From Flavobacteriales bacterium (GTDB taxonomy: Bacteria; Bacteroidota; Bacteroidia; Palsa-965): DNA of 64,000 nt. Under the pieces are notes generated by a model. The model searched no databases. It was not told where the DNA came from and saw nothing but the letters and a program-made list of their open reading frames with translations. Where the stretch lies: contig JBEIPA010000021.1 in NCBI GenBank assembly GCA_040377305.1, positions 1 through 64,000 of the forward strand, read 5' to 3'. Within the stretch, counting starts at the first letter, position 1. Every line of letters begins with the position of its first letter. Position numbers and translations under genes: made by a program. Below are positions 1 to 44,011 of the stretch, piece by piece.

Positions 1-112
1 CTATCATCCTATCATCCTATCATCCTATCATCCTATCATCCTATCATCCTATCATCCTATCATCCTATCATCCTATCATCCTATCATCCTATCATCCTAT
101 CATCCTATCATC
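1..112. repeat. Perfect tandem repeat (CTATCATC)x14, truncated by the window edge
   Basis: 14 exact 8-bp units from 1 to 112. The last unit overlaps the TGA stop (111-113) of the TolC-family gene. Confidence 0.98.
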
Positions 113-36414: not shown

Positions 36415-37944
36415 TTGAGCCCGAAGAAGCAGTACTACCCCACGTTTCTAAAGAACTTTCGCGACAAACCATTTGACGCGAAAGCGCTTGAAGCAGCCTA
36501 TTATCAGGCGAGAATCGGCGATGAAGTGCGTGGTGCAGACGAAGCCGTGTCCTATTTTTCAGAATACAAAATCGACGCGGTTCATTGGCACTTTCATCAG
36601 CGAATTCTGCGAGATGAAGTTTTGTACCGGCTGGTTTCCGAAGGTTACATTCACCCGAAAGTTCATCCTGTTGGCGCCATTTATCACGATGCAGAATTTT
36701 ATGCATTCGTTTTTCCGTTCATTCACACGGCTATTCTCAGGAAGATGGCGCTTGCAATTGAATCGGAAAATCTGAATGCGGTGAAGCTGCTTGAACAATG
36801 GATTGAACCTTTCGGTACGTTGTTTCGTGATGCGTTCTATCACATGGTCGAGTTTACAGCAGATGAAATAGTGAAAGAACTTCATGCAGTTAAACTCAAC
36901 CGAAAGTCATTGTCATTTGACTTATACGGCCGCGTGAGTCCAGCTCTAATGCAACTGTTAAATCGTTTGCCGGATCGCCGTCAGGACAAACGCGATCAGT
37001 TTGCCTTGGTTGTGATTGATTTCGCGGTTTGGCTTCGCGAAGACATGAAAGTTTACACGCAGCCAAACGGACTAATGACGCGTTTGAAATTGCTCAATGT
37101 CAGTGCAGATATCCACGCGCAACGTAGCATTCAAATGGCAAAGTGGGAGCAGGAAAAGGATGCAATTACGAAAGAGAAATTTTCGCTCAATCATCTCATC
37201 TGGATTGTTCCTGCGGTGTTAATCGTTGCGTTTGTAATCTGGAGACAAACAGACATGGGCAAATCGGATGATGCCATCATTGAGGAACATCAGGAAGCAC
37301 TCGCCATTGAACAAGCTGCTTTGGACGAAGAGAAGGAGAAGATTCGCCTGCGCATGGAGAGTATTGATTTGAACGAGCAGATTGCGAATGAACTTTGGGA
37401 CGCATACAATTCTAATCCGCAAGGTGGTGTTCCGCCTGCAGCTGCCGGCGCGGCTCACATAGATAACGGAGAGTTGATGTATTCTGAATGGCTCAAAATT
37501 GGTCGGGAGATTTATTTCGCCGATCAGACAAGCCTCACTCTGGTGAATAACAGCGAATGTGATGCAATTGTATTTGTACGTCAAACGAACGGGCCATACA
37601 TGGAGCGAGCGTACTATTTGCGCACACAGCGCAGCGTAGAAGTGCAGGATGATAAAGTGCGGCCATATTCCATACGGGTTTATGCCGGAAGCGAATGGGC
37701 TGATTCACTCGTGACATCGAACTATGCCAGTAAGTTGCTGAACGTTTTGCCAGGAGAAACAAAGGATGAATTTCCTTCTTCAACGGAGTTGCGCGGAAGA
37801 TTTTTGTATCCTGTTAAATCGCTACAGGAGAATTTACTTCCGGCAGATGTGATTCAGGCTGCTTCGCACTTTGACTACAATGGTGTTCCGGTAGTTACGA
37901 TCATTGGTAGTCACGAGAAGATTGAATACGCTACAGGGAAGTAA
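36415..37944 (+). CDS. Hypothetical single-pass membrane protein
   Basis: 509 aa, TTG start 3 nt after the previous stop, one central TM segment (LIWIVPAVLIVAFVIW). Confidence 0.75.
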   Translation: MSPKKQYYPTFLKNFRDKPFDAKALEAAYYQARIGDEVRGADEAVSYFSEYKIDAVHWHFHQRILRDEVLYRLVSEGYIHPKVHPVGAIYHDAEFYAFVFPFIHTAILRKMALAIESENLNAVKLLEQWIEPFGTLFRDAFYHMVEFTADEIVKELHAVKLNRKSLSFDLYGRVSPALMQLLNRLPDRRQDKRDQFALVVIDFAVWLREDMKVYTQPNGLMTRLKLLNVSADIHAQRSIQMAKWEQEKDAITKEKFSLNHLIWIVPAVLIVAFVIWRQTDMGKSDDAIIEEHQEALAIEQAALDEEKEKIRLRMESIDLNEQIANELWDAYNSNPQGGVPPAAAGAAHIDNGELMYSEWLKIGREIYFADQTSLTLVNNSECDAIVFVRQTNGPYMERAYYLRTQRSVEVQDDKVRPYSIRVYAGSEWADSLVTSNYASKLLNVLPGETKDEFPSSTELRGRFLYPVKSLQENLLPADVIQAASHFDYNGVPVVTIIGSHEKIEYATGK

Positions 37945-37973: not shown

Positions 37974-38423
37974 CTAAATGTTATTCAGCATTTCCGCTGT
38001 AAGAGGTTTCCTTATAAATAAGATGGAACTATCAAATTCCCGAACTTCTGATTGATCGGCATCGTGAATAGACGATGTTAGAACAATAATCTTGGATTTT
38101 TTTACGACACTATTTTCCCACTTTCGGAATTCCCGTATAAACTGCATTCCGTTCATGACGGGCATATTGAGATCAACAAAAATGATGTCAGGTGACAAGT
38201 GGTTGGCATCGGGTTCTCTTGAATGCAGCTCCAAAATAAGATCGAGTGCGAGTTGCCCGTTGATTGCAAAGTGCATAACTTCCGAAAAGTTGGAGGCAGC
38301 CAACATCTTTTCGCTTATGAAGTTGTCGATATAGTTGTCATCAACGAGTAGGGTCACTTTATACTTGTGCTGTCCGCTGACCGGAATGGAAAGGAGAGGC
38401 TGTAGTTCGCTATCGTTTTTCAT
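37974..38423 (-). CDS. Single-domain response regulator
   Basis: 'LLVDD', 'IFVDLNMPVMNG', 'LTSS' and 'KPLT'. Start uncertain (38423 or 38453). Confidence 0.88.
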   Translation of the reverse strand: MKNDSELQPLLSIPVSGQHKYKVTLLVDDNYIDNFISEKMLAASNFSEVMHFAINGQLALDLILELHSREPDANHLSPDIIFVDLNMPVMNGMQFIREFRKWENSVVKKSKIIVLTSSIHDADQSEVREFDSSILFIRKPLTAEMLNNI

Positions 38424-41400
38424 AGGGAAGTTCGATAATAAATTCTGTTCCAACGTTTAATTCACTTGCAATGCGTATGGTCCCACCGAGTGTTTCAACT
38501 TGTGTTTTCACCATAAAAAGGCCAAGTCCTTTTCCTTCTGTGTGATCGTGAAAGCGCTTGTAAAGTCCAAAAACCTGGGAAGCGTGTTTTGAAAGGTCGA
38601 TCCCGATTCCATTGTCTGCGAAGTATATTCTGACGTTAGAATCGTCCGACTCACTTCGGATAGTAATGTTCGGAGGAATTCCGCGCTGCTGGTATTTGAT
38701 ACTATTCGATATCAGGTTGTAAAATATACTGTACAGATAGCTGCGTATTGCGAATATGCCGTCTTGTTGACTGAAGTCAGTTGCAATTCGAACATCTTTG
38801 TTCTCCATTACAGTTTGAATGCTTGACTTGATAGTTTCTACAAGCTCGTTAAAATGAACCGTTTCCTTATATTCATTAATCTCGGCTTTAGCCTGGAGAA
38901 TAACGTTGAGATCTTTAAGCATTATATCCAGCTGTGCTGCTGCGCTAAACAAGTATTCTTGAGTTTGTGTTCTTTCTTGTTCCGACAGTTTATTCTTCAT
39001 CACATTTGATAGTCCGAGGATATGTGCTACGGGCGAACGCAGGTTGTGAGAGATGATTGCCGTGAACTGTTCCAGATTCTTGGTATGCTGAACCAGATTA
39101 CTTATCATTTTCTCGCGTTCTGCTTCGACCAATTTTCTCTCAGTAACATCATGCATAACGCCGAGAAGTCGAACGGGTTTCTTATTACTATCAAACTCAA
39201 ATTTTCGTTCGGTATAGCCATATCTTAATTCTCCGTCTTTTCGGATAAATCTGAAGTTGTATGAAATGGCATCGTACGACGTAAAAGCAATCCCAACATC
39301 TGAGGTCACCTTCTCAATGTCATCTGGATGAATGAAAGACAGGAAAAGCTCCTGTGACGGTATCGGATTCGGATCGTCTATTCCAAACAAAGAGAACATT
39401 TCCTCGGACCAGGTGTGAACATTCGTAGCGAAATCTATCTCCCAGTTTCCCACATGAGAAATAGCCTGCGCTTCTTTCAGAAGCGACTCACTTTTCCGGA
39501 GATTTTCTTCGGCAAGTTTACGTTCTGATATATCCTGGTGCGACACGACAACCATAGGTACGTTGCTTTCCAATTTGAGAATAGTCAGCCCAAACCATCT
39601 TTTCACACGCGGTGAATTACATGGGTATTCCATGTAGTAGTCGCTCTTGTCACCATTCATAACTTCCTTAATTCCGAACAGTGCTTCGGCGGCACCCTTG
39701 GAATTCGCGAGGATGGATTTTTCGCAGACCTCGAAATAATTCGAGCCTACACCTGTGCTCAGCAATGTACTGTCTCCGTTCTCGTTGGAGAATCGGTCCC
39801 AGGAAGCATTAACCGCTACAATGGTTCCTGTTGAATCTATAACAGCAATGTGAGAACTCAAGGAATTGAGTACACCATTGGTAAACGCTTCACTTTGTCT
39901 GAGTTTCTCTTCGGCGATTTTCGACTTTGTAATATCTCTGGAGTGACAGGCAGCTCCAACTATCTCTTCACCTTTGCGAATTGGCGAATAAGAGATTTCC
40001 GTCCAGAATTCAAAAGGTTGCTGAAAGTGACTTATTTCCCGGTACGATTCACCGGCGAATGCCCGCTCATACAGATGCTGAAAATGGGTATACATTTCAG
40101 GGGTATACGAAACGTTAAGAATGCTTTCTCCTTTTTGAAGGACGTAACCAAAGTTGACCTTACTCATCTCGTCGAATGACAAATTGGATGTAATCAGGTT
40201 AAACTCCCGATCTACACTCCACATCAGATCGTCCGTGTTATTGATCAGCGCACTTAAATTGTTTTGGTCAAATTCTTTTTGTTGTTCAGCGTGCTTGCGG
40301 TCTGAAACATCCCTGAAGTTGGATACTAAGGAATTGATACCTGGTTCATCGAGCATATTGGTGATGGTACCTTCACACCATTTCCATGTACCGTTCTTAT
40401 GCTTCAATCTCATCTTAAGTTCAAAAGGCATTCCTCTGGTATTAAGAAGATGAACTCTTTTCTTTGCATATTCCTCCTTCTCATCCGGATGAAGTATGTC
40501 GAAAACATTCATACGAAGTATCTCCAGTGGTTCATACCCCATGGTATGTGATGCAGAAGGACTGGCATAAGTGAAGTTTCCTTCCTGTGTACTAAACGTT
40601 TTTATGTCTGTTCCCTTTTCGACCAGGACCCGAAATCTCGTTTCATTGACTTGTAATTTGAAGTCCGTCTCCTTTTGTTGAGATTCTTTCTCGAAAAGTT
40701 CCAGCGCAAAGGAAATATCATTGGTTAGCTCAATGAGTAATTTTATTTCATCCGCACCCGCAAAGTTTATTTCACTTGAAAACAGATTGAAAGTACCAAT
40801 GATTTTTCCCGACTTTCTGATCGGAAGAACCAGAAAGGAATTAATGTTTCGTTGAAGCGCGTATTCTTGCAAACCACCTTTGATCTCCGAATGGAGTACA
40901 TCGTTACAGATATAATATTTTCCGGTGTTCAGTACTGTAAATTGAGGTTCATCTGTTGTGTATGAAGCGTCAGTGAAAAGTTTAATGTCCTCAAAGGGTA
41001 CTCCCGATTGTTCAGCAAGTGTTATGGTTTGATTTTCCGGGTTGAATATTCCAATCCAAGCCATCTTAAATTTGCCAAACTCAATTGCTAATCGGCACGA
41101 GTTACGGAAAAGAGATGTTTCATTCGGAACGCGTACAATGTTCTGATTGACCTGACTGATGAAGGCATATAGGTGATTGGCTTTGTTCAGTTTCTCAGCG
41201 GTGATCACTTTCTCCATCTGGTCATCAGCTTCCTGTAATGCCCTGTTGATTTTATCCGGAAGTGTATAAAGCGAGTCTTTCAATACGTAATCGTTCGCTC
41301 CATTCCTGATTAATTGAGCTGCCTTTTCTTCTCCAACTGTACCCGTCACAAAAATAAATGGAGTGTCGGGCGCCATGTCTTGCTTGAGCTTAAATGCCCG

Positions 41401-41601
41401 TTTACCGTCAAAGGATGGAAAGGTGTAGTCGGACAAGATAATGTCTGGAGAGAATTCTTTAAGCGCATTTACGTAAGTGCTTTCGGTGTATACAACAAGT
41501 GAGAGATAGTTGAGACCACTCCTGTGTAGCACGTGAATAATCAGGTCAACATCGCTTTGGCTGTGCTCAACAATCAGAATTTTGATGACGTTTCTAGTCA
41601 T
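38410..41601 (-). CDS. Hybrid signalling kinase REC-GAF-multi-PAS-HisKA-HATPase
   Basis: N-terminal REC ('ILSDY', 'GANDYVLK'), a GAF domain, several PAS/PAC segments ('HPDE', 'HPDD', 'DVTERK'), 'SHNLRSP', 'NLISNSIKY' and 'GKGLGL'. Confidence 0.92.
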   Translation of the reverse strand: MTRNVIKILIVEHSQSDVDLIIHVLHRSGLNYLSLVVYTESTYVNALKEFSPDIILSDYTFPSFDGKRAFKLKQDMAPDTPFIFVTGTVGEEKAAQLIRNGANDYVLKDSLYTLPDKINRALQEADDQMEKVITAEKLNKANHLYAFISQVNQNIVRVPNETSLFRNSCRLAIEFGKFKMAWIGIFNPENQTITLAEQSGVPFEDIKLFTDASYTTDEPQFTVLNTGKYYICNDVLHSEIKGGLQEYALQRNINSFLVLPIRKSGKIIGTFNLFSSEINFAGADEIKLLIELTNDISFALELFEKESQQKETDFKLQVNETRFRVLVEKGTDIKTFSTQEGNFTYASPSASHTMGYEPLEILRMNVFDILHPDEKEEYAKKRVHLLNTRGMPFELKMRLKHKNGTWKWCEGTITNMLDEPGINSLVSNFRDVSDRKHAEQQKEFDQNNLSALINNTDDLMWSVDREFNLITSNLSFDEMSKVNFGYVLQKGESILNVSYTPEMYTHFQHLYERAFAGESYREISHFQQPFEFWTEISYSPIRKGEEIVGAACHSRDITKSKIAEEKLRQSEAFTNGVLNSLSSHIAVIDSTGTIVAVNASWDRFSNENGDSTLLSTGVGSNYFEVCEKSILANSKGAAEALFGIKEVMNGDKSDYYMEYPCNSPRVKRWFGLTILKLESNVPMVVVSHQDISERKLAEENLRKSESLLKEAQAISHVGNWEIDFATNVHTWSEEMFSLFGIDDPNPIPSQELFLSFIHPDDIEKVTSDVGIAFTSYDAISYNFRFIRKDGELRYGYTERKFEFDSNKKPVRLLGVMHDVTERKLVEAEREKMISNLVQHTKNLEQFTAIISHNLRSPVAHILGLSNVMKNKLSEQERTQTQEYLFSAAAQLDIMLKDLNVILQAKAEINEYKETVHFNELVETIKSSIQTVMENKDVRIATDFSQQDGIFAIRSYLYSIFYNLISNSIKYQQRGIPPNITIRSESDDSNVRIYFADNGIGIDLSKHASQVFGLYKRFHDHTEGKGLGLFMVKTQVETLGGTIRIASELNVGTEFIIELPYEKR

Positions 41602-41603
41602 GA

Positions 41604-42041
41604 TTAGCTCGATTTCTGATTAGTGATCGTCCAGAACAAGCCCAGGCGTGAAATTGCCTTTTGAAATTCGTCGAATTCAACGGGTTTTACAACGTAGCTA
41701 TTCGCACCGAGGGCATAGCATTTTTTAATATCGGGGTCTTCTTTTGATGAAGTAAGAATTACAATTGGAATTGTTTTGGTTCTTTCATCTGCGCGAACTG
41801 CTTCCAGCACTTCGATGCCATTCACTTTCGGCATTTTTAGATCCAACAAGATGACCCTTGGCTTATCTTCAACACTTCTGGCCGAGAATTCACCTTGGGC
41901 GAAAATGAAATCCAGCGCTTCTGCGCCATCTCGAACGTGCAGAAGTTTATTTGAAAGATTGTTTTCTTTCAAAGCGGAGATCGTCATTTCGGCGTCGCTG
42001 GCACTGTCTTCAACCAACAGGATATCTACAGAATGTATCAT
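41604..42041 (-). CDS. Rcp1/CheY-like response regulator
   Basis: 'ILLVEDS', 'LLDLKMP' and '[10 protein letters not shown]'. Start reassigned to ATG 42041. Confidence 0.92.
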
Positions 42042-42045
42042 AGGA

Positions 42046-43695
42046 TTATGAATTTGGCAATGTGAAATAAAACGTAGCACCTGCGTCGACTTTGGCTTCG
42101 GCCCATACGCGTCCATCGTGTTTGGCAATAATCCTTTGAACAATTGCGAGACCAACACCAGTACCCTCAAATTCATCTTCTGAATGCAGACGCTGGAAAA
42201 CTCCGAACAACTTTTTCACATAGCGCATATCGAAACCGGCGCCATTATCTTTTATTGAATAGATGATTTCTTCACCTTTTGATTCTGAATCGATTTCAAT
42301 AATTGCTTGTTCCCTTTGGCTCGTGTATTTGATAGCATTTGAAACCAGATTTGTCCAGACTTGTTTCATGGCAACTGTATCTGCACTGGCTGCAAGAAGT
42401 GGTGATATTCTGATTTCAATGTTCCTGCTGTCAAATACGTTTTTAAGTTCATCGCAGAGATTGGTCACGAGATCGTTCATGGAAATCTGCACTTTCACAA
42501 GTTCTTTTCTTCCGAGTCGTGAAAATGTAAGCAGATCATCAATCAATTGACCCATTTTCTTGGCGTTGTTAATGATGTTGCCTACGAGACGATGGATTTC
42601 CGGATCGACCTGTTGAACTTCTATTTCTTTGAGCATGCGGGCGTAACCATGAACGGCGCGAAGAGGTGCACGCAGATCATGAGATACCGAATAAGAAAAA
42701 GCTTCCAGTTCCTTATTAGCAGCTTCTAGCTTTGCCGTACGATCTATTTTTTCCTGATTCTGAACTGCAAGTTCTTTGTTAGCAATTAATAGTTCTGCGG
42801 CTCTTTTCTCTTTCTCTTCATTCTGAAAAGCAAGCTCAATATTTGCAATGAGTAGTTCTGCTTCCCGCTTTTCTTTTTCCTTATTTTGGTAAGCAAGTTT
42901 CTTGTTTGCGGCGATCAGTTCAATCGCTTTTTTCGCGTTCTCTTCATTTTGAATGGCCAAGTCTGCATTGGCAGTACTTAGTTCTGCGGCTCTTTTTTCC
43001 TTCTCTTTATTTTGAAAAACGAGCTCTATGTTTGCAATGCTAAGTTCTGCCGCGCGCTTCTCTTTTTCTTTATTCTGAAAAGCAAGTTCTTTATTGGCAA
43101 TTCCCAATTCACCGCTACGTTTTTCTTTCTCGGTATTTTGAAACAGAAGTTCCGTATTGGCAATTGCCAGTTCTGCGGCCCGCTTTTCTTTCTCCTCATT
43201 TTGAAAAATGAGCTCAATGTTTGCAAGGTGCAATTCGGCTGCTCTCTTTTCTTTCTCCTTGTTCTGAAAACTGAGTTCTTTATTTGCAATGACTAATTCA
43301 GCCGCTCGCTTCTCTTTCCTTGCATTTTGAAAAGCAAGTTCCTTGTTGGCAATTAGCAACTCAGCAGCACGCTCCTCTTTCTCGTGATTCTGAAATGCAA
43401 GTTCCCGATTGGCAATGATCAGTTCCGCAGCGCGTTTTTCTTTTTCCTTATTCTGAAATGCAAGTTCTCGATTGGCAATTACCAGTTCATCTGCCCGCTT
43501 TTCCTTCTCTGTCTGCTGAAACGCTAATTCTTCGTGGGCAATCGTTAGTTCCGCCGCTCTCTTTGCCTTTTCTTCATTCTGAAAAGCATATTCATTTCGA
43601 TCAATGATCAATTCACCATGAGGCTTCTGCCCTTTGGCTTCCTTGGAGTTTTTCTTCGGATCAGGTGGGTTACTTTTCGATACGTGTAGGGGCAT
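42046..43695 (-). CDS. Cph1/BphP-type histidine kinase with 14 tandem 21-aa coiled-coil repeats and no sensor domain
   Basis: H-box '[11 protein letters not shown]', 'NLVSNAIKY', 'DNGAGFD', 'FQRLH' and 'GTGVGLA'. The N-terminal region is (ELxIANxELxFQNxEKEKRAA)x14. Confidence 0.92.
42733..43614 (-). repeat. Intragenic 63-bp tandem repeat x14
   Basis: 14 consecutive gap-free 21-codon units counted in the translation. Confidence 0.95.
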
Positions 43696-44011
43696 AAAAT
43701 GACGAATAAAATAGTTTAACACGTTCAACCAAAGGGTCAGTCGTACGTATCTGTTAACCTGAGATTTTCTCAAGTTGAGAAGATCAATGTCTCTGCGATT
43801 AGCTGGAAAAAGTCACCTATCAAAAGCAGTAGATAGGGACTGGAAGAATAGGTTGTCAAACAGATCACATATTCATACGTGACACAGTTTTAGTAGATGT
43901 ATGTGTTACAACCCTATGGTGAAGATACATGTACTTGCTGCGGGAACTTGTACATAATTCACTGATAGCTTACATGATACGGGAATCGTAGAGGGAATTC
44001 CCCAAAGACAG

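Follow-up and report, generated by a model that had tools for sequence, protein, structure and literature searches.

An N-terminal rod of fourteen 21-residue repeats in a Flavobacteriales histidine kinase, and the signalling repeat family to which it belongs

The repeat-rod kinase and its gene cassette

The window analysed here, a stretch of 64,000 nucleotides from a Flavobacteriales genome (GCA_040377305.1, contig JBEIPA010000021.1), carries on its reverse strand a gene for a histidine kinase of the HisKA class, a 549-aa ORF at 42046..43695. As judged from the ORF translation and a monomer model, the protein begins with a 27-aa leader predicted to be disordered (pLDDT about 32; 43615..43695, reverse strand). 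The leader is followed by an array of 14 units of 21 aa (residues 28-321; 42733..43614, reverse strand), which was delimited with TRF and by alignment of the units and is predicted to be helical in the same model. A short junction (42706..42732, reverse strand), recognised by unit alignment and S-helix comparison as the C-terminal half of an S-helix-like segment, leads to the HisKA (DHp) domain with His339 (residues 331-395; 42511..42705, reverse strand; PF00512, E 4.8e-14). The protein ends with a HATPase_c domain (residues 439-548; 42052..42381, reverse strand), assigned with Pfam, in which a box check found the N, G1, F and G2 boxes intact. With the H box also present, the sequence hallmarks of a HisKA kinase were all found, and the gene is intact, not broken.

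Above the Pfam cut-offs nothing except HisKA and HATPase_c was found in the rod kinase; PAS, GAF and a PAS-GAF-PHY photosensor or other chromophore domain were absent from this search. HAMP gave no match at E 0.1, and the rod did not qualify as a poly-HAMP array. The top 19-residue hydropathy over residues 1-330 was -0.03, and no transmembrane segment was found there. The statement of the initial annotation that the kinase has no TM, PAS, GAF or chromophore domain was thus borne out. The Pfam match PH_SLA1, below cut-off in the query and above it in two relatives, was treated as compositional noise, as were matches to CMV_1a_C, Gp10-like, LktC and YlzJ.

That annotation had also described a 27-aa leader and 14 in-register units without indels running directly into the H-box helix. 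The leader and the array stood as described: the units follow the consensus ELxIANxELxFQNxEKEKRAA, and each of the 14 is exactly 21 aa long, with 0 indels. The direct run had to be corrected, since unit 14 is separated from His339 by 17 residues, half an S-helix, and units 1, 2, 11 and 14 are degenerate. The triplet D-R-T occurs only in the last unit (14), its Arg being 20 residues N-terminal of the phospho-His. At the DNA level, TRF reported a period of 63 bp, 13.2 copies and a score of 392. Pairs of units are 42-90% identical in amino acids and 47-84% in nucleotides, and codon differences across all unit pairs comprise 639 synonymous and 612 non-synonymous ones. Several codons are used for every conserved residue, and the possibility of a DNA-level element was therefore rejected. 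A higher-order period of 189 bp (three units) was seen at 42790-43489, and Ile at position 7 is common to units 7, 10 and 13, likewise in PAS-bearing sister proteins.

The window's DNA is present in wastewater and freshwater sequencing runs. In an independent wastewater run, a single 886-nt contig covers 42608-43493 with 1 difference; as this metagenome contig spans most of the array, an assembly artefact is unlikely. The start ATG fits the starts of the orthologues, which lie 136-140 nt from a common upstream motif; an alternative upstream TTG start would give 575 aa.

The kinase heads a cassette on the reverse strand. A single-domain response regulator of the phytochrome-RR (Rcp1/RcpA/RcpB) type (41604..42041) begins 4 nt past the kinase stop and, as its sequence and position suggest, is likely the cognate acceptor. 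It is followed by a REC-GAF-PAS(n)-HisKA-HATPase hybrid kinase, the third cassette gene (38410..41601, reverse strand; Pfam), in an order kept in relatives, and by a second single-domain response regulator (37974..38453, reverse strand; Pfam), which is present also at the orthologous locus of another genome of the genus, G015. Convergent on the cassette is a 509-aa ORF on the forward strand (36415-37944) that has no Pfam match and is kept in G015. The contig starts with a perfect 8-bp tandem array of 14 copies (window 1-112).

Upstream of the kinase, two conserved blocks were found that are common to the window gene, its orthologues in G015 and G013, and the gene of a PAS-bearing relative (L021). 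One is a 6-bp inverted repeat flanking a 10-nt core (43816..43837, reverse strand), whose arms differ among the window's genome (G000), G015, G013 and L021; it is likely a promoter or regulator site. The other has the form TGTAA ... ATT-TGTA (43951..43974, reverse strand), and the two blocks could possibly be a regulator site or a small hairpin. A scan for sigma-70 promoters and terminators upstream of the rod kinase found nothing. The gap from the stop of the preceding mannosidase gene to the kinase is about 316 bp. A frameshifted upstream sensor domain, named by the initial annotation as the sign of a truncated remnant, was looked for and rejected on the size of this gap and the same layout in the orthologues.

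The orthologues in G015 and G013, genomes of the same genus, lie behind the same mannosidase gene with 14 units each, the G015 one being made up of two overlapping contig ends and the kinase part of the G013 one being cut by a contig end. Position-specific unit variants are kept across all three genomes. Between orthologues the pN of the rod was 0.097-0.131 (G015 0.097, G013 0.102), whereas the kinase core had 0.087 and the response regulator 0.09, synonymous sites being saturated. The rod thus changes at the rate of the catalytic core, which indicates purifying selection on it and agrees with the earlier suggestion of selection on the protein repeat. Since 14 units are found in 3/3 orthologues despite saturated synonymous sites, the repeat number appears stable at this locus. 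The idea that repeat number acts as a tuning knob did not hold here, with 14 units in all three orthologues and 14-15 in five PAS-bearing sisters. Elsewhere the number differs, being 3-4 in other PAS-bearing kin and 7 and 11 in two chemoreceptors.

In the kinase tree the rod kinase groups (support 96/98) with eight proteins bearing a long PAS-type N-terminal region, which was recognised by sequence without domain scans of each protein. Five of the eight have 14-15 units of the same series and three have 3-4. The gene of L021, a PAS-bearing protein, starts at an ATG 136 nt from the common motif, against 137-140 nt for the genes lacking a sensor, and the leader preceding its PAS region is similar to the odd beginning of unit 1 in the window. 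An in-frame deletion of PAS in the ancestry of the rod kinase is plausible on these sequence likenesses; on the tree, the support for loss or gain of PAS (70/86) neither shows nor rejects a deletion. Either way, as far as sequences tell, the rod is retained with or without a PAS sensor.

The 21-residue unit as a family

The 21-mer is not confined to this gene. It was matched in 7,740 of 7,999 scored proteins of similar length, in 1,432 of 7,998 scored shorter proteins and in 1,589 representatives of 50%-identity clusters. The best 80 named loci belong nearly all to Bacteroidota or Ignavibacteriota; outside those phyla a kinase with about 5 units was found on a Clostridium estertheticum plasmid. 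Repeat-positive genomes make up 12 of 27 in the window's genus and 59 of 161 in genus g12. In the phylum sample they number at least 15 of 401, with one match unconfirmed and six candidates scored per genome; G296, whose weak match showed no unit on inspection, was counted as negative, and the tally without the window's genome is at least 13 of 400. The tally for the window's genus and the large kinase tree include an unpublished genome (G012), on which no conclusion rests.

The survey of domain partners that the initial annotation had proposed returned the kinases, GGDEF and HD-GYP that it had listed, and more besides: several kinase classes, PAS, REC, GAF, CHASE3, adenylate cyclase, SpoIIE, DHp-only stubs and the MCP domain. 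What the annotation had missed is that the unit forms a large family, often stands beside ordinary sensor domains and is in register with the S-helix. The 21-mer is not represented by any model in Pfam or NCBIfam. No description of the repeat was found in the open-licence PMC and bioRxiv literature, supplements aside, and no relative of it was recognised among solved structures, where the search gave a single match at E 0.78. A fold search with the rod kinase returned only kinase cores (HK853/ZraS/BphP). The 21-mer rod is a real and conserved signalling module that appears not to have been described before, attached to a kinase class that is already known.

One member of the family, a 1,449-aa hybrid kinase (L128:3920-8266, G008:C25), has 25 units in six blocks, with 7-residue inserts and PAS. 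The second repeat gene of the window's genome (G000:C21:2547-3953, forward strand; L104) consists of 10 units and a DHp-like stub lacking an ATPase domain, which from its sequence is possibly a phosphate sink or partner. Arrays of higher identity were also seen, with 89-90% DNA identity between units and a varying number. Columns 2 and 9 of the unit use different codons for Leu, which suggests that units share fairly recent descent and would fit descent with transition bias.

The unit is strictly spaced. Adjacent units lie 21 aa apart in 1,660 of 1,671 cases, and 1,391 of 1,396 spacings are multiples of 7 (1,380 units, 150 representatives of 50%-identity clusters). In the same set 11 positions of the unit are 88-98% invariant. 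In the register of the S-helix paper, a is L, L, K; d is A, Q, R; e is N, N, A; and g is E, E, E. These residues are 78-98% invariant, and b and f vary. Large hydrophobic residues thus occupy two of the six core positions of the unit, with near-invariant Q, K, R and N; in the window's rod, a is L 27 and K 13 times out of 42, and d is Q 14, R 13 and A 13 times. The description of the unit as three heptads with polar core positions was confirmed in both respects. Positions 4 and 11 are hydrophobic in 92% and 98% of units and face outward in either register, and this Ile4/Phe11 stripe is unaccounted for by a plain two-stranded coil.

Pro is nearly absent from the repeats and heptad periodicity is present. 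In the monomer model, helices span residues 34-232 and 244-358 with a low-confidence break at 233-243; ten-residue pLDDT means are about 65-80 along the greater part of the rod and fall to 44-58 near the break. If continuous, the rod is predicted to be a coiled coil of about 44 nm, and from its DHp domain we infer that the kinase is a dimer. Of 142 direct junctions of repeat and kinase, 70 place the unit Arg 20 residues N-terminal of the phospho-His.

In 80 genome loci, 36 of 74 complete kinases have no N-terminal region other than the repeat; this count leaves out 10 rows truncated at locus ends, and its set is biased to long arrays. On a 189-row kinase tree, some truncated rows included, the label sensor-less or sensor-bearing changes at least 22 times. 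Five complete genomes were picked for a single repeat hit, and in 5/5 all repeats lie in one gene, three of these genes encoding sensor-less kinases and two encoding chemoreceptors with the repeat as sole input. The need for an obligate repeat-bearing partner was therefore rejected. The chemoreceptor clusters have the order CheR(TPR)-CheW-MCP-CheA-CheB-RR, and both receptors are soluble, with near-identical units (89-90% DNA identity): one (G226:C15:176k; L116, L162) has 11 units and an ice-binding gene 9 kb away, the other (G218:C20:32k; L117, L163) has 7 units and an ice-binding gene 22 kb away. Unit number is also related to architecture, with 6-14 units in 9/9 sole-input kinases and five or fewer in 14/24 multi-domain proteins (Fisher p 0.004, which orthologues make optimistic). 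This comparison covered complete ORFs of the genus and phylum surveys, and omits cut ORFs, most DHp-only stubs, chemoreceptors, G012 and the Clostridium kinase.

Regarding the genomic company of the repeat, the commonest non-signalling neighbour is an AraC regulator (15/80 loci), followed by the ice-binding family PF11999 (DUF3494; 10/80), of which about 0.5 matches would be expected in those 0.81 Mb even in positive genomes (hand estimate). PF11999 was found in 12/12 repeat-positive versus 1/15 negative genomes of the window's genus (10/10 versus 1/15 without G000 and the unpublished G012), in 9/13 versus 41/387 of the phylum sample without G000, and in 36/59 versus 12/102 of genus g12. In g12, CsbD was also enriched (53/59 versus 53/102), whereas a Cas1 control showed no link (20/59 versus 32/102). 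By hand count, the repeat and PF11999 lie within 35 kb in 21 of 32 scorable double-positive g12 genomes, and without those linked genomes the enrichment is weaker (11/34 versus 12/102). The association is thus largely one of physical linkage in stress islands, among kin that are not independent. It is also incomplete: PF11999 is missing from 23 of the 59 g12 genomes with the repeat, and of the 50 genomes of the phylum sample that have PF11999, 41 are without the repeat.

The islands examined also hold CsbD, Dps, YtxH, DUF892, DUF2383, lmo0937 and catalase, which we take to be general-stress genes. Since CsbD is enriched about as strongly as PF11999, cold is not singled out, and neither is temperature over other stresses. 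Carriers presumably from cold habitats, in an uncontrolled list, include Polaribacter glomeratus, Flavobacterium degerlachei, Mucilaginibacter antarcticus, Algoriphagus aquimarinus ACAM 450 and Clostridium estertheticum. In the window's genome, the rod kinase and the C21 repeat stub lie on contigs other than those of the ice-binding genes. One contig (G000:C19:4699-8543) has AraC, PAS-kinase-REC, response regulator and ice-binding genes in a row, as in relatives; this hybrid kinase is without repeats, unlike its counterparts in G001, G008 and G023. DUF3494 is found in warm habitats too (excerpts of PMC6892780). In Psychroflexus it has been reported that a bacteriophytochrome-like kinase cluster adjoins a putative ice-binding gene, in excerpts that make no mention of a repeat (PMC3914696).

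The rod as a possible input

Taken together, the fusions in which the repeat is the sole input, including the chemoreceptors, the longer arrays where it is the sole input, and the linkage to stress genes give circumstantial support, at the sequence level, to the rod being the sensor. We tentatively propose that the rod is a weak coiled coil which acts cooperatively, serves as the input for cold, freeze-dehydration or osmotic stress and determines the register of the DHp domain, a reading that may well be correct but falls somewhat short of probable. The kinase would be soluble, and its 14 units would make up a single extended coil of two loosely packed strands that shares its register with the phospho-His helix. 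Each unit would repeat the polar Arg layer of the S-helix, and the Leu stripe between conserved small or polar stripes (A/Q/R and N/N/A) would make two overlapping registers possible. Together, some 42 weak heptads would give a sharp, cooperative switch, which a PAS, REC or CHASE domain, where present, would bias. The rod would then likely be the input, probably reading cold, freeze-dehydration or osmotic stress, and would likely switch phosphotransfer to the adjoining response regulator. This mechanism is favoured by analogy with two-register linkers (PMC12805367), heptad-dependent linkers (PMC6798134) and TlpA (10.1101/694448), as excerpts of these sources describe them.

Other explanations account for part of the same observations. 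The near-identity of units across taxa and unit numbers of 1-25 in proteins that also have a sensor are just as compatible with a structural role. An unlikely explanation, yet one deserving serious weight, is that the rod is a passive dimerising stalk in one register with a constant phosphoryl flux, regulation being left to transcription or to the downstream REC-GAF-PAS hybrid kinase. Unit number is higher where there is no other dimerising domain, register is kept at any unit count, a sensor-rich hybrid kinase sits in the same cassette, the conserved upstream element could give transcriptional control, and a stable coil fused to GGDEF leads to constitutive activity (excerpts of PMC12805367). 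However, a stalk would need neither the weakly hydrophobic core with its near-invariant Q, K, R and N nor 14 units that evolve as slowly as the catalytic core. DHp domains are able to dimerise by themselves, and a chemoreceptor with CheR/CheB adaptation would imply a variable input. We regard as doubtful, but still as a serious alternative, a multivalent docking or self-assembly surface whose outward Ile/Phe stripe binds a partner protein, the membrane or other rods and which receives its signal in trans. It is favoured by the hydrophobic outward stripe and by the several repeat proteins, DHp-only stubs included, that often occur in one genome. Against it, the five complete genomes with a single repeat gene make a repeat-bearing partner unneeded, and none of the non-signalling neighbour families is present at more than 15 of the 80 loci, although a partner encoded elsewhere in the genome is conceivable.

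Two further explanations concern the origin and the chemistry of the rod. The gene might be a remnant, a PAS-kinase minus its sensor in which the repeat is tolerated and neutrally expanded. Its closest kin have PAS together with the same series of units, unit 1 begins much like the L021 leader, young arrays are 89-90% identical in DNA and variable in number, and the Leu codon columns point to fairly recent common descent of units. Against this, three orthologues without a sensor keep the rod under the constraint seen in the catalytic core, and forms lacking a sensor arise repeatedly on the tree; we consider the remnant very improbable. Even less credible is the idea, modelled on a proposal for MAC proteins, that the rod is a methyl-accepting coil on which CheR/CheB act. 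The heptad L-x3-N-x-E is common to the unit and to the MAC1 coil of the one CheB-CheR-kinase of the window's genome, and CheR/CheB genes occur in some islands. The methylation-site pattern is [EQ][EQ]xx[small][small]; the rod has 0 matches to it and the MAC1 coil has 5, and the half-site K-E-x-R-A-A occurs 8 times. CheR is present in only 6 of 80 loci, with no CheR/CheB in the window's cassette, and the rod as a CheR substrate was disfavoured on both counts.

Extended from this kinase to the family, the proposal of the rod as an input would make the 21-mer a portable, ligand-free sensory module, an amplified S-helix layer for cold, freeze-dehydration or crowding that bolts onto kinases, cyclases, phosphatases and chemoreceptors and serves as the front end of a general-stress and ice-binding regulon of Bacteroidota; we consider this wider proposal possible but rather less than probable. 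Thousands of signalling proteins carry the 21-mer, with no family model or description in the libraries searched. The sole-input kinases and chemoreceptors offer a clean soluble system for physical sensing without a ligand-binding domain, and the rod kinase poses the question of how a signal would pass along a helix of 300 residues. Its association with ice-binding and CsbD/Dps islands makes the repeat family a source of candidate regulators for these genes and indicates which conditions would matter. For engineering, a genetically encoded switch that tolerates 63-bp insertions without loss of register would be useful.

Comparison with known signalling coils

The S-helix has been described as a parallel coiled coil preceding HisKA, GGDEF/HD-GYP, cyclase, PP2C and PAS domains, with the signature ERT at c-d-e and nonpolar residues disfavoured at R and T (excerpts of PMC1592074). 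The unit resembles it in register, which is continuous with the output: in 95 of 142 repeat kinases the distance from Arg to His is 6 modulo 7, as it is for the S-helix Arg in 11 of 12 kinases without the repeat. The residues most often seen behind R-T (E, L, N, E, L) are those of unit columns 1, 2, 6, 8 and 9, and the Glu at g after the signature corresponds to column 1, which is E in 94% of units. Among 22 S-helix-like windows, 17 score best in the heptad phase of the unit, but the Arg column is not the only fit, column 5 (9) being ahead of column 19 (7); a separate, looser set of windows was noisy. The unit differs in having K (76%), R (96%) and A (96%) in place of ERT, and in having I, F/Y, K at c and I/V, A/V, E at b where the S-helix is acidic. 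Moreover, the S-helix is one copy of about 40 residues and 5 heptads between two domains, whereas the unit has 3 heptads in 1-26 tandem copies, often with nothing upstream, the window's rod being 294 residues long and N-terminal. The 21-mer is therefore S-helix-like in register and, to judge from the sequences, probably in origin, yet outside the S-helix definition.

The MAC-type coil has N-x-E-L heptads before the kinase as well and sometimes occurs in the same islands, but the rod kinase has neither a CheB/CheR fusion nor the full methylation-site pattern. The only CheR of the window's genome is part of a MAC1-type CheB-CheR-coil-kinase (G000:C43:32095-35577, forward strand).

TlpA is comparable by principle, no sequence relation having been seen. 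Its coiled coil melts cooperatively and controls DNA binding by undimerising (excerpts of 10.1101/694448); it is long and of similar size to the rod, in which a cooperative transition would be the same principle. The rod differs, as far as those excerpts go, in being an exact tandem repeat and in that its output is a kinase kept dimeric via DHp. The linkers of the PadC and LadC cyclases and of the YF1 kinase are two-register or heptad-dependent (excerpts of PMC12805367 and PMC6798134). They are like the rod in their polar core residues and in length changes by multiples of a heptad, but have, in these excerpts, few heptads and a bound sensor, whereas the rod has 42 heptads and no sensor.

The kinase core itself is closest, among solved structures, to bacteriophytochromes (Cph1/Rcp1, RpBphP2; E 1.5e-38 to 1e-32), and the adjoining single-domain response regulator is related to Rcp1/RcpA/RcpB, as in the Cph1/Rcp1 pair. 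The best NCBIfam match of the kinase, LvrA, scores far under its cut-off. The difference lies in the input region, where the PAS-GAF-PHY photosensor of the bacteriophytochromes is replaced by the rod in the window kinase.
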